NCBI GenBank assembly: GCA_027450005.1
Contig: DAIDKO010000018.1
Coordinates: 16,738 to 80,737 of the forward strand
Direction of reading: 5' to 3'
Length of the DNA: 64,000 nucleotides
Origin: Rhodanobacter sp.
GTDB lineage: Bacteria; Pseudomonadota; Gammaproteobacteria; Xanthomonadales; Rhodanobacteraceae
The notes under the pieces are model-generated. The model saw nothing but the letters and a program-made list of their open reading frames with translations. It ran no database searches and was not told where the DNA came from. Of this stretch, positions 6,827 to 36,095 are shown piece by piece (within the stretch, counting starts at the first letter, position 1; each line of letters opens with the position of its first letter). A program made the position numbers and the translations under genes.

Positions 6827-7149
6827 CCGCGCACCGCCCCGCTAACGTCGCCGGCCATGCGTTCCATTTCGCCGGAGGCTTCGAGATCGACGACGATGTC
6901 GCAACCGCCGATCAGCTCGCCTTCGATGAACAATTGCGGAAAAGTCGGCCAGTTCGCGTAGTGCGGCAGCGCGGCGCGAATTTCCGGGTCGGCCAGCACG
7001 TTCACCGCGTGGAACGGCGCGCCGGCCCGCTGCAGCGCCTGCGCGGCACGGCTGGAAAATTCGCACATCGGGAACTCCGGCGTGCCCTTCATGAAGAGCA
7101 CGATGGGGTGCACAGCGAGCAGCGACTTGATTCGCTCGTTTACGTCCAT
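6823..7149 (-). CDS. grxD: Monothiol glutaredoxin Grx4
   Basis: LFMKGTP..PMCEFS, WPTFPQL and GGCDI motifs (active site CEFS rather than the usual CGFS). Confidence 0.93.
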   Translation of the reverse strand: MDVNERIKSLLAVHPIVLFMKGTPEFPMCEFSSRAAQALQRAGAPFHAVNVLADPEIRAALPHYANWPTFPQLFIEGELIGGCDIVVDLEASGEMERMAGDVSGAVRG

Positions 7150-33360: not shown

Positions 33361-34608
33361 ATGCTCTACCAGATCCACGAGTGGCAACGCGCCTTCCTCG
33401 GCCCGCTCAGCCATTTTGCCGACGCCAGCGCGAAGATGCTCAACGATGCGAACAACCCGTTCGCGTCGTGGCCTGGCACGCAACGGCTGGCCGCCGGCTA
33501 CGAACTAATCCATCGCCTCGGCAAGGACTACGAGAAGCCCGCCTTCGGCATCCACCAGGTCGAGGCGCATGGCCACGAGATCGCGGTGATCGAACGCGTG
33601 GCGCTGGACACGCCGTTCTGCCAGCTGAAGCGATTCAAACGCTTCAGCGACGACCCGGCCACGGTCGAGACGATGAAGAACGACCCGGTGGTGCTGGTGG
33701 TGGCGCCGCTCTCTGGCCACCATGCCACGCTGCTGCGCGATACCGTGCGCACCCTGCTACGCGAGCACAAGGTGTACATCACCGACTGGGTGGACGCGCG
33801 CATGGTGCCGGGGGAAGCGGGCACATTCGGGCTGGACGACTACGTGGCGCTGATCGAGCGCTTCATCCGCCACATCGGCGCCGAGTCGCTGCACGTGGTG
33901 TCGGTGTGCCAGCCCACCGTGCCTGTGCTGGCCGCGGTGTCGCTTATGGCTGCTCGTGGCGAGGCCACCCCACGCAGCCTGACCATGATGGGCGGCCCGA
34001 TCGACCCGCGGCGCAGCCCGACCAGCGTCAACAACCTCGCCACCACCCAGCCGCTGTCCTGGTTCAAGGGCAACGTGATCCACACCGTGCCGCCGAACTA
34101 CCCCGGCCGAGGCCGCGAGGTGTACCCAGGCTTCCTGCAGCACGCAGGCTTCATCGCGATGAACCCCAGCCGCCACCTGCAATCGCACTGGGACTTCTAC
34201 GAGAACCTGTTGCGCGGCGACCTGGACGATGCCGAGGCACACCGACGGTTCTATGACGAGTACAACGCGGTGCTCGACCTGCCGGCAAGGTTCTACCTCG
34301 ACACCATCGCCACCGTGTTCCAGCAATTCCTGCTGCCGCGCGGCCTGTGGGACGTGGGCGGTGAGCGCGTGACTCCCTCGGCCATACGGAGCAGCGCCCT
34401 GCTCACCGTGGAGGGCGAGCTGGACGACATCTCCGGCCTCGGCCAGACCGAGGCGGCGCACGACCTGTGCAGCAGCATCCCGGCCAAGCGCCGCGCACAC
34501 CGGGTGATCGAGGGCGCTGGCCACTACGGCATCTTTAGCGGCCGTCGCTGGCGCGAGGTCGTCTATCCGCAGGTGCGGGAGTTCATCCGGCGGTTTGATC
34601 ACGCGTAG
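33361..34608 (+). CDS. phaZ: Intracellular polyhydroxyalkanoate depolymerase
   Basis: APLSGHHATLLR, SVCQP (catalytic Cys), EGELDDISG and GHYGIFSG. Confidence 0.93.
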   Translation: MLYQIHEWQRAFLGPLSHFADASAKMLNDANNPFASWPGTQRLAAGYELIHRLGKDYEKPAFGIHQVEAHGHEIAVIERVALDTPFCQLKRFKRFSDDPATVETMKNDPVVLVVAPLSGHHATLLRDTVRTLLREHKVYITDWVDARMVPGEAGTFGLDDYVALIERFIRHIGAESLHVVSVCQPTVPVLAAVSLMAARGEATPRSLTMMGGPIDPRRSPTSVNNLATTQPLSWFKGNVIHTVPPNYPGRGREVYPGFLQHAGFIAMNPSRHLQSHWDFYENLLRGDLDDAEAHRRFYDEYNAVLDLPARFYLDTIATVFQQFLLPRGLWDVGGERVTPSAIRSSALLTVEGELDDISGLGQTEAAHDLCSSIPAKRRAHRVIEGAGHYGIFSGRRWREVVYPQVREFIRRFDHA

Positions 34609-34659
34609 GGATGATCGACGCTTGCGCGTCATGGGCATCGCTTGGGACTGCGCAAGCGA

Positions 34660-35235
34660 CAGAGCGGTTTCGGGCGCCTGCCGGCGCCAGAGTGACTTCT
34701 CTTTTGCTTGTCCAAAAGACCGATGGCGCGCCATCCAGGTATCCTGCCTTCCGGGTGCGCGAATGGGCTACGGGGTTATTCGACGGCACTTCCATTACCA
34801 GCGAAAAGCTGACCGGCATCCGCGCGGGCCATACTGCAGACTTTCCTTCACCCACCCGCCGCGCCATACCGGCCCCGTGCAGAGCAGCGCGCTCCCGGAG
34901 CGCACTTCCCGAAAAGCCAAAGCAAGAGCGCCGCGCTTAGCGTGGCGCTCTGCTGTTGCTTCTGGTGCACAGGATGTGCGCCTGTTTCTGCGAGGCCACT
35001 GGACTGCGGTGAGGCGCGTACGAAAAGGCCGCGCCGCGGGCGAGTCCATGGATGGACTCGTCTTTTCGCGCGGGCAGGATGCCCGCTCAAAAAGCCCGGC
35101 ACCGCCTCACAAACTTGCCACCCATGGATGGGCGGAAAGCGCGAACCGGGATCTCGTTTCTCTTTGGCTACGTTCTCCTTGAACAAGCAAAAAGACCGTA
35201 GCTCGGGCGCCCAAACGGCGCACGGAACCGCTCTG
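34660..35235. mobile_element. MITE/REPIN-like non-coding element of two inverted arms bearing GGA-loop hairpins
   Basis: ~60-bp imperfect terminal inverted repeats (CAGAGCGGTTTCGGGCGCC...CTTTTGCTTGTCCAA vs the reverse complement of 35174-35235), central hairpin 34921-34954, four GGA hairpins per arm; no transposase. Confidence 0.75.
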
Positions 35236-35261
35236 GATGCCTGCGATCGCGGCAATTCCCC

Positions 35262-35594
35262 CTACATTCCCCACAACGCCCGATCCAGGTCCGCATCCAG
35301 TCCGAACGCGGACAGCGCCACGCGCCCGTTCTTCACCTCCACTCCCTCAGCGCGCAGCCGCCGCACCTGTTCGTAGAAGCCGCGGCTGCTCCTGGGCAGG
35401 GCGATCTCGCCGGAGGAACGCAACACGCGGAACCAGGGCAGCTCCATGCCATCCGGCACCTCGCCCAGCAGCCTGCCGACCAGCCGCGCCCGACCGGACA
35501 GGCCGGCGCGGGCGGCGATAGCGCCGTAGCTGGCCACCCGGCCTGGCGGGATTGCGGCAATGGCAGCGTAGACGCGGGCGTGGCTGTCTTGCAT
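35262..35594 (-). CDS. Alkyltransferase-like (Atl/YbaZ, MGMT family) protein
   Basis: IPPGRVASYG..A, ARLVG and LPWFRV (Trp in place of the catalytic Cys); start at ATG 35594. Confidence 0.88.
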   Translation of the reverse strand: MQDSHARVYAAIAAIPPGRVASYGAIAARAGLSGRARLVGRLLGEVPDGMELPWFRVLRSSGEIALPRSSRGFYEQVRRLRAEGVEVKNGRVALSAFGLDADLDRALWGM

Positions 35595-35690
35595 GGCGAT
35601 GACCCGATGGGGCGATAACGAGGCCTTGACCAAGGCTTGCGGCTGACATGTCAGAGTAGCAGGGCCATCGACCAGAGCCGGACAGCGACC

Positions 35691-36095
35691 ATGCACCACT
35701 TCGAAGCCGTGCGTTCCCACCTCGGCAGCCTGCACGGGCTGCGCCAGAACGACCCCTATCTGATCAGCTTCGACTTGGACCTGCCGCATGGACGCCACCA
35801 GGGTATCTATCTGGCCGAACTGGAAACGGAATCGGGCCACCGCTACCTGCGGATCTCCACGCCGATCGGCCCGTTGGCGGGCACTGACGCGCAACGCTGC
35901 CTGCGCTTCAACTGGGCCCAGCGCTGCGGCTTCCTGGCCGTGACCGACCTAGACGGCGCACCCTACCTGCACCTGTGCGAGAACAGGCCCTACGAATTGC
36001 TCGACGAGAACGAACTGCAACGCGTGATCGTGGAGCTCGGCAGCCTGGGCGACCAGCTCGAACAACTCGTCGCCAGCGGCCACGACGCGTTCTAG
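35691..36095 (+). CDS. Hypothetical protein, probably YbjN/CesT-like chaperone fold
   Basis: 134 aa from ATG 35691; GRHQ.IYL..., ISTPIG and C-terminal GDQLE helix pattern. Confidence 0.6.
   Translation: MHHFEAVRSHLGSLHGLRQNDPYLISFDLDLPHGRHQGIYLAELETESGHRYLRISTPIGPLAGTDAQRCLRFNWAQRCGFLAVTDLDGAPYLHLCENRPYELLDENELQRVIVELGSLGDQLEQLVASGHDAF

Follow-up and report, generated by a model that had tools for sequence, protein, structure and literature searches.

A divergent pair of GGA-hairpin repeat units between phaZ and atl of Rhodanobacter, very probably a branch of the extended TwoAYGGAY RNA motif

TwoAYGGAY RNAs and the Rhodanobacter element

The TwoAYGGAY RNA motif (Weinberg et al. 2010, PMC2864571) is held by Rfam as family RF01731 within the CsrB/Rsm clan CL00106, and binding by CsrA was proposed for it in 2015 (PMC4333381). 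'Extended' TwoAYGGAY RNAs, which carry extra hairpins and 5' arrays of GMTBT(T) 5-6-mers, have been described in Pseudomonas (bioRxiv 10.64898/2026.09.22.753630, September 2026). There, 68% are divergent doublets (median 249 bp), median copy numbers range from 11 to 23 with a maximum of 202, and arrays of repetitive extragenic palindromic (REP) sequences follow downstream; the RNAs are described as having expanded like a mobile element and as possible multivalent Csr/Rsm sponges (bioRxiv 10.64898/2026.09.22.753630). The Xanthomonadales are not mentioned in the main text of that preprint. The element described here is located at positions 34651-35245 of a 64,000-nucleotide stretch from Rhodanobacter sp. 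(contig DAIDKO010000018.1 of assembly GCA_027450005.1), which at its full length is referred to as the window and whose numbering is used throughout. It lies between the genes phaZ and atl and is a divergent doublet, i.e. two repeat units of about 282 nt in back-to-back arrangement with a terminator-like hairpin between them. The family to which it belongs is in all probability a Rhodanobacteraceae/Xanthomonadales branch of the extended TwoAYGGAY motif, of which the copy in the window represents one divergent doublet.

The link to TwoAYGGAY RNAs is provided by genomes in which the Rfam model and a model of the new family meet on the same bases. The latter model, R1, is a covariance model of the 139-nt core of the repeat unit. 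On copies from other families of the order, RF01731 scores 33.8-37.3 bits, which is below its gathering cut-off of 43 bits, and these sub-threshold matches fall on the second and third hairpins of the unit (H2 and H3) on the same strand. In G192, the genome of another gammaproteobacterium, a match of RF01731 above the cut-off (49.4 bits) is overlapped by an R1 match, and the divergent partner arm reaches 46.5 bits with R1. At a second locus of G192 and in genome G261, RF01731 matches above the cut-off are likewise overlapped by R1 on the same strand. The overlapping R1 matches in both genomes have E values of 0.007-0.015 and their partner arms score 38.9-46.5 bits. These shared matches point to homology between the Rhodanobacter repeats and bona fide TwoAYGGAY members.

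The 5' side of the units was compared with the preprint as well, and its six 5-mers occur 2.9 times per 200 nt upstream of the units as opposed to 1.5 times at random and 1.1 times downstream, with a maximum of 22. Short tandem arrays that vary in length between copies were seen directly 5' of single units, such as (GCTCTA)x7 and (CTGTTGCTTCTG)x3 (L051:7381-7440, L138:746-810). The copy in the window has a single short-repeat stretch of 12 nt (34952-34963).

Architecture of the doublet

In 22 aligned doublets the conservation ends after CGCAAG/CTTGCG, and the element is therefore taken to span about 34651-35245. A profile of the right unit (nhmmer) matches the left units from end to end in inverted orientation, and the element is therefore an inverted pair of diverged homologous units, which are designated R type (right) and L type (left). 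Its parts are as follows.

34651-34925, minus strand: left unit (L type), a diverged and here decayed homologue of the right unit, with the conserved outer end CGCAAG..CAGAGCGGTTTCG
34660-34718, minus strand: left terminal module, comprising the GC hairpin GGCGCC-TGCC-GGCGCC and the truncated half of the long terminal hairpin
34729-34865, minus strand: left core, comprising the basal stem and GGA hairpins with loops at 34737-34749, 34785-34799 and 34813-34830 and partly broken stems
34887-34905, minus strand: left hairpin 1, GCGCT-CCGGG-AGCGC
34925-34951, no strand: central hairpin of 12 bp, GC-rich and terminator-like (terminator scan), with an A-rich left and a T-rich right flank
34952-34963, plus strand: 5' short-repeat segment GCTGTTGCTTCT, in other copies expanded to arrays such as (GCTCTA)n or (CTGTTGCTTCTG)n
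34952-35245, plus strand: right unit (R type), well preserved, 130.3 bits with R1
34964-34982, plus strand: hairpin 1 (H1), GGTGCAC-AGGA-TGTGCGCC, with GGA in 34 of 65 R-type copies
35009-35110, plus strand: multibranch domain, the TwoAYGGAY-like part, in which the basal stem GTGAGGCG/CGCCTCAC encloses a small hairpin, H2 and H3
35041-35060, plus strand: hairpin 2 (H2), AYGGAY-type loop CAUGGAUG, stems CGAGTCCA/TGGACTCG around TGGA, with GGA in 64 of 65 R-type copies
35062-35095, plus strand: hairpin 3 (H3), outer stem CTTTTCG/C(A)AAAAG, inner stem GCGGGC/GCCCGC, loop AGGAU
35114-35139, plus strand: hairpin 4 (H4), CTTGCCACCC-ATGGA-TGGGCGGAAAG, an additional GGA hairpin not enclosed by the basal stem, with a covarying stem of its own
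35167-35202, plus strand: hairpin 5 (H5), the long terminal hairpin, of whose 15 perfect consensus pairs the window copy has 12
35204-35245, plus strand: hairpin 6 (H6), GGGCGCC-CAAAC-GGCGC, and the conserved outer end CGGAACCGCTCTG..CCTGCG

Read 5' to 3', the consensus unit consists of a GCTNT-type stretch, H1, a GGGGCCCC palindrome, the basal stem enclosing a small hairpin together with H2 and H3, then H4, the 15-bp perfect H5, the small GC-rich H6 and the end CGAAACCGCTYTG..CTTGCG. An earlier note on this DNA had placed four GGA hairpins in the right arm, and all of them were found at these sites (GTGCAC-AGGA-TGTGCGC at 34965-34981, the TGGA hairpin at 35041-35060, GCGGGC-AGGA-TGCCCGC at 35070-35086 and CCACCCA-TGGA-TGGGCGG at 35118-35135). 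It had also described the left arm as carrying equivalent, partly decayed loops on the other strand, which agrees with the full-length nhmmer match and with an R1 score of 95.8 bits (G000:C18:51466-51602, minus strand, corresponding to 34729-34865 of the window). The left arm of the window copy has a deletion of 26 nt through H5 when compared with other copies, and the fold of its core is no better than that of shuffled sequences (z +1.76), the right core reaching z -2.46.

Of the two longer stems that had been proposed to organise the hairpins into a multibranch fold, the one formed by GTGAGGCG and CGCCTCAC (35009-35016 with 35103-35110) was confirmed and shows covariation throughout the family, e.g. 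UA in 48 and CG in 27 copies at one pair. The CGAAAAG/CTTTTCG stem found no support. The pairing of CGAAAAG at 35021-35027 with CTTTTCG at 35062-35068 was rejected, as CTTTTCG pairs with a CGAAAAG further downstream with compensatory changes while the upstream segment varies freely. In the window copy this downstream partner reads CAAAAAG (35089-35095) and forms the outer stem of H3.

Inverted repeats of 19 and 33 nt are present at the two ends of the doublet. The earlier note had taken its ends of about 60 bp for terminal inverted repeats (TIRs) of the whole element. They proved to be the 3' hairpin module of each unit, namely H5, H6 and the end, of which single units carry just one, and no target duplication or partner transposase was found. 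The assignment of the left terminal module is backed by the inverted repeats I1/I2, the TIR alignment, the nhmmer matches and the consensus hairpins H5/H6. The central hairpin lies outside the conserved unit, and the central segments of the five copies in the genome of origin are unlike one another.

Conserved structure and GGA loops

The feature is real and its structure is under selection. Within the genus, two or three kinds of Watson-Crick pair are found at each position of the stems of H2, H3, H4, H5 and H6, the stem of H2 having three types at three positions. H3 shows compensatory changes at 12 of its 13 pairs. When R and L types are compared, compensatory changes are found at 18 of the 32 consensus pairs. 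The earlier note had proposed stem covariation around GGA loops as a check, and this is what 26 distant cores display, with 30 of the 32 pairs changed on both sides and the GGA of H3 present in all 26. On an alignment that was fitted to R1, so that the numbers lean towards structure, 95.7% of the pair cells of these cores are standard as opposed to 68.2% after shuffling, and the covariation score is 0.718 compared with 0.19 for shuffled and 0.06-0.10 for slid partners.

In the loops it is the GGA that is retained. Among 65 R-type units it is kept in 64 (H2), 63 (H3) and 61 (H4), where 50 of the 65 had been picked by a pattern that fixes H3; in the 15 chosen otherwise the GGA is present 15 times in H2, 13 times in H3 and 14 times in H4. 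H1 is weakly constrained in the R type, because its GGA is found in only 34 of the 65 units. The 32 L-type units keep the GGA in 32 (H2), 32 (H3), 29 (H4) and 30 (H1) cases, and the 26 distant cores in 23 (H2), 26 (H3) and 19 (H4), H1 not having been counted in the latter. The statement of the earlier note that the stems differ while the loop motif is kept thus holds. The H2 loop follows CCA[N]GGA[N]GG, in which each N takes all four bases, and H3 reads CAGGAG in Rhodanobacter and CA[N]GGAUG in sister genera, where its stem has been rewritten many times among the distant cores. Three to four loops per unit fit CA(N)GGA(N)G, which in a hairpin loop is the established binding site of CsrA/RsmA (PMC4333381). 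Because the stems have been replaced again and again in five families, the selection acting on these loops stands out readily.

Copy number, distribution and mobility

The genome of origin is a metagenome-assembled genome (MAG) of 2.9 Mb in 164 contigs. It contains five doublets, the window copy and four more full copies of about 580-630 nt with 71-80% identity (BLAST), which are made up of the same left and right halves. Four other R units of this genome have 77-81% identity. R1 finds nine cores in this MAG and 37 (G014), 6 (G002) and 3 (G016) in three complete Rhodanobacter genomes. BLAST matches are present in 18 of 19 other Rhodanobacter genomes, with up to 36 in each and hundreds overall, many of which cover one half only. 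As the unit recurs hundreds of times in related genomes, chance is excluded. A scan of a public genome collection with the exact H3 pattern returned matches confined to Rhodanobacter and Dyella records, and the same pattern found no match in viral contigs. With R1, full-length cores were detected in 19 genomes out of the 121 that were sampled from the order, and these 19 belong to 5 families and 11 genera.

At the phaZ-atl site itself, G008, G014 and G017 have a spacer of just 10-46 nt and thus lack the element, G009, G010, G012 and G019 carry either the element or a right unit, and others carry something else. In G009, the closest relative, about 200 nt of the left arm are gone. The copy at phaZ-atl is old; four other species share it, and decay of its left arm is under way. 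Two other copies of the genome of origin are found at shared loci in five relatives, and many insertions are therefore older than speciation within the genus. Gain and loss can be traced through filled and empty orthologous sites and through decaying copies. The family has multiplied in the manner of a mobile element, in agreement with the dispersed, mobile-like repeat that the earlier note had suspected (five doublets in the MAG, 3-37 cores per complete genome, empty orthologous sites).

A number of smaller repeats accompany the family. The spacer of about 160 nt between phaZ and atl in G005 (L160) holds a different short repeat, whose TTGGACAAGCGAAA segment resembles the H5 loop region. In the genome of origin the terminal module of about 58 nt (the H5/H6 end) is also found without a GGA core, either singly or in back-to-back arrangement (G000:C123:23283-23378, C16:4646-4700, C132:3411-3461 and about 15 more places), which suggests a smaller repeat family with the same ends. 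REP-like GGGAGAGGGG..CCCCTCTCCC palindromes lie directly beyond many copies. Many doublets are bracketed by an outer pair of inverted REP-like palindromes, GGGAGAGGGGTTGGGGGAGAGGG ... CCCTCTCCCCCAACCCCTCTCCC (flanks of L013, L033, L039, L012 and L021; e.g. L039:6330-6398 and 7043-7110), and where this pair is present the whole locus is therefore one long palindrome. The outer pair is absent from the window copy, and it resembles the REP arrays downstream of Pseudomonas TwoAYGGAY copies.

The searches for a mobility machinery returned little. No transposase was found in the two unit pairs that enclose 1.1-1.4 kb, a search that was not exhaustive. In these pairs (L052:4689-6662 and L065:4354-5980) two outward-facing right units enclose one open reading frame (ORF) each, of 364 aa with a weak likeness to HEPN/DUF3644 and of 218 aa without a family; the ORFs may be cargo, or the pairs may be two neighbouring insertions. 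The RAYT family PF01797 was not found in G014, which has 37 cores, nor in G002 or G016. The sole match to this Y1 transposase family in the genome of origin (G000:C44:5103-5381) contains an in-frame TGA. A direct repeat that would mark a target-site duplication was not seen around the 22 aligned doublets, where the flanks are often inverted and the empty sites too diverged to fix the junction.

Gene neighbourhood and orientation

To the left of the element, phaZ (33361-34608, plus strand) encodes an intracellular polyhydroxybutyrate (PHB) depolymerase (Pfam PHB_depo_C, E 3.7e-94). To its right, atl is encoded on the minus strand with its stop at 35262 and its product is a small protein with a methylguanine-methyltransferase DNA-binding domain. 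The two genes are convergent, and the element occupies the gap between both stop codons. The true start of atl is probably at about 35630, because the Pfam domain spans only the last ~105 residues of the long ORF. A further ORF on the plus strand (35637-36095), coding-like in its GC content at third codon positions (GC3 0.84), overlaps the long reading of atl. In itself the window copy is one ordinary, partly decayed representative of the family.

The gene context of the family was assessed for 204 non-redundant units with a rough GC3-based gene caller, by which some starts were misplaced. Among the single units, 31 of 52 lie between convergent genes, 10 lie in sense and 5 in antisense orientation between tandem genes, and 6 lie between divergent genes. 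The corresponding numbers for doublets are 17 between convergent, 29 between tandem and 3 between divergent genes. Copies of the family avoid intergenic regions that bear promoters. Wherever two units lie within 2 kb of each other (59 pairs) they are divergent, their GGA strands facing outward and their midpoints being separated by a median of 342 nt. Read-through from phaZ or atl would therefore first copy the antisense (UCC) strand of the near arm, and it would meet the central hairpin (34925-34951) before any GGA sites. The proposal of the earlier note that read-through from either side yields an RNA with four GGA sites needs to be amended accordingly.

A candidate CsrA/RsmA-binding RNA

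Rhodanobacter is a host group that has csrA, which is also present in the genome of origin (G000:C19:18116-18271), and no known Csr/Rsm sponge RNA. None of CsrB, RsmZ and RsmY was found above its cut-off in five Rhodanobacter genomes, in keeping with the remark of the earlier note on a lineage where classical GacA-driven Rsm sRNAs are not well established. In Xanthomonas, the only RsmA-binding RNA described is RsmU, a 3'-untranslated region (UTR) fragment limited to that genus (PMC7694677).

In the proposed mechanism, the GGA strand of the unit would be read as RNA, and CsrA/RsmA dimers would be bound by the three to four CA(N)GGA(N)G loops of that RNA. The many copies could then jointly titrate CsrA, or else put neighbouring transcripts under CsrA control. 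That the loops of a GGA-strand RNA bind CsrA/RsmA dimers is put forward tentatively, as a possibility that falls somewhat short of an even chance. The idea of a CsrA sponge is not a new one: it repeats a published hypothesis, and the Rhodanobacter repeats are a Xanthomonadales variant of the kind already described.

If CsrA does bind, a mobile repeat would constitute a genome-wide post-transcriptional buffer; if it does not, the loops point to some other protein that recognises them. It may further be speculated, as an idea we regard as doubtful, that the repeats are the missing CsrA/RsmA antagonists of the Rhodanobacteraceae, either as a distributed sponge made up of dozens of mobile transcribed units or, alternatively, with CsrA binding being needed for the persistence or spread of the element. 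Were the distributed sponge true, the amount of CsrA left free would be determined by how many copies a genome has (3 to 37).

The evidence that the unit is read as RNA has to be set against a number of observations that weigh in the opposite direction, some of which are limits of that evidence itself. In the local hairpins, G:U pairs exceed A:C pairs on the GGA strand, by 19:4 in distant cores, a count made on an alignment fitted to a model that was built in that orientation, and by about 31:20 in close copies, which hints at an RNA read on this strand. A typical unit shares words with 10 or more RNA-labelled public runs, and contigs from four of these runs, which come from four studies, match the unit with a likeness of at least 80%, these contigs being strand-less, possibly due to DNA carry-over and inflated in depth by copy number. 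A sigma-70-like promoter was not found at the element (GacA/UvrY boxes were not searched systematically), and the GGA strand has no terminator at its 3' end, the only terminator-like hairpins being located 5' of the right arm's GGA strand, directly upstream of it. The orientation of the GGA strand shows no significant bias with respect to genes, tandem contexts being 10 sense and 5 antisense. RF01731 itself has no match in the window (E<=10) or in the genome of origin (E<=1), and control genomes are likewise without a match. Scans of the window against Rfam, another check that the earlier note had suggested, returned chance-level matches alone (microRNA models and CC1840). H5 covaries strictly by Watson-Crick pairs, which a DNA-level palindrome would fit equally. 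The identity of orthologous right units is 0.88, 0.86, 0.80 and 0.80, compared with 0.77-0.90 at third codon positions of phaZ and atl. Purifying selection over the whole unit finds no support in this similarity, and since the whole unit drifts at about the synonymous rate the constraint is local and not global.

Alternative explanations

The H5 palindrome and the near-synonymous divergence of the unit would also suit a purely selfish DNA element of the REPIN type or of the miniature inverted-repeat transposable element (MITE) type, in which hairpins and loops are recognition sites on single- or double-stranded DNA for a transposase or recombinase acting in trans and the likeness to CsrA sites is incidental. 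The inverted ends of the doublet, the range of 3 to 37 copies within one genus, the empty and filled orthologous sites, the independence of orientation from gene direction and the terminal modules found singly or in back-to-back arrangement at other places of the genome all fit such an element. It is at odds with the G:U excess on one strand, with a loop consensus that equals the CsrA consensus and leaves its N positions free, and with a core that has been kept in five families through many independent compensatory changes. Furthermore, no transposase lies between any examined unit pair, PF01797 was not found in G014 despite its 37 cores, and no target-site duplication was seen. A selfish element of this kind is considered rather unlikely, though it is the strongest of the alternatives.

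Two further readings would give the units a role in RNA of another sort. As a 3'-end element like REP, BIME or ERIC, the hairpins together with the central bidirectional terminator-like hairpin would end transcripts and shield them against 3' exonucleases, and the GGA loops would have no role. This would account for the enrichment between convergent genes (31 of 52 single units; 17 convergent versus 3 divergent composites), for the terminator-like central hairpin and for the way the window copy fills the gap between the stops of phaZ and atl. It leaves unexplained the near-invariant GGA next to free loop positions, related species manage with a phaZ-atl spacer of 10-46 nt and no element, and the central hairpin varies between copies and lies outside the conserved unit, all of which makes this reading improbable. 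A dedicated sponge small RNA (sRNA) gene of the CsrB/RsmY/RsmZ kind, driven by a GacA-type regulator and duplicated by chance, would agree with the several GGA hairpin loops per unit, with a genus in which no classical Rsm sRNA is detectable and with weak RsmW and RsmY clan matches on distant copies. Such a gene is hard to reconcile with dozens of copies at unrelated loci and with insertion polymorphism; a promoter-like site is absent, the GGA strand has no terminator at its 3' end, and no Rsm/Csr model of Rfam reaches its cut-off, leaving this reading with hardly any credibility. Taken together, a doublet of the TwoAYGGAY branch whose RNA would bind CsrA is the best explanation, and one that we hold to be slightly favoured overall.

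Comparison with known systems

Small, gene-less, structured intergenic repeats in many copies are familiar from Correia/NEMIS of Neisseria, ERIC/IRU of enterobacteria and the REPINs of Pseudomonas. The Rhodanobacter units resemble these MITE- and REP-type repeats in being multi-copy and gene-less, often located at gene ends, and in having inverted ends. In contrast to them, the unit is much longer (282 nt, the doublet 576-600 nt), its core is kept across families of the order with extensive covariation, and no target duplication, matching transposase or RAYT was found for it.

With CsrB and CsrC as well as RsmX, RsmY and RsmZ the units share several hairpin loops conforming to CA(N)GGA(N)G, the consensus of CsrA/RsmA, and RsmU illustrates for a sister family that the source of an RsmA-binding RNA can be a 3' UTR and not a dedicated gene (PMC7694677). 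Unlike the Csr/Rsm sponge sRNAs, the Rhodanobacter units are dispersed repeats with insertion polymorphism and not single regulated genes, no promoter or terminator was detected for them, and they have neither a sequence match nor a covariance-model match above the cut-off.

The closest likeness is that to TwoAYGGAY RNAs. The Rhodanobacter copies differ from these in that RF01731 stays below its cut-off on every copy in the genus, in that H3 has a four-base AGGA loop without the Y, in the added GGA hairpin H4, and in a 3' module made up of a 15-bp perfect hairpin and a GC hairpin. They agree in the two adjacent AYGGAY-type hairpins (H2 and H3) on a common basal stem, all three helices of which covary. 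With the extended TwoAYGGAY RNAs they further share the additional hairpins, the absence of an attached protein gene, the REP-like repeats beyond the 3' ends, the 5-6-nt GMTBT(T)-type repeats on the 5' side, the presence of tens of copies with large differences in copy number between relatives, and the divergent doublets a few hundred bases apart, an arrangement that is also found in distant genera. The Rhodanobacter lineage would thereby add a TwoAYGGAY branch that the Rfam model misses, to a group of repeats that, in many Pseudomonadota, rank with the most strongly structured of all unannotated loci.

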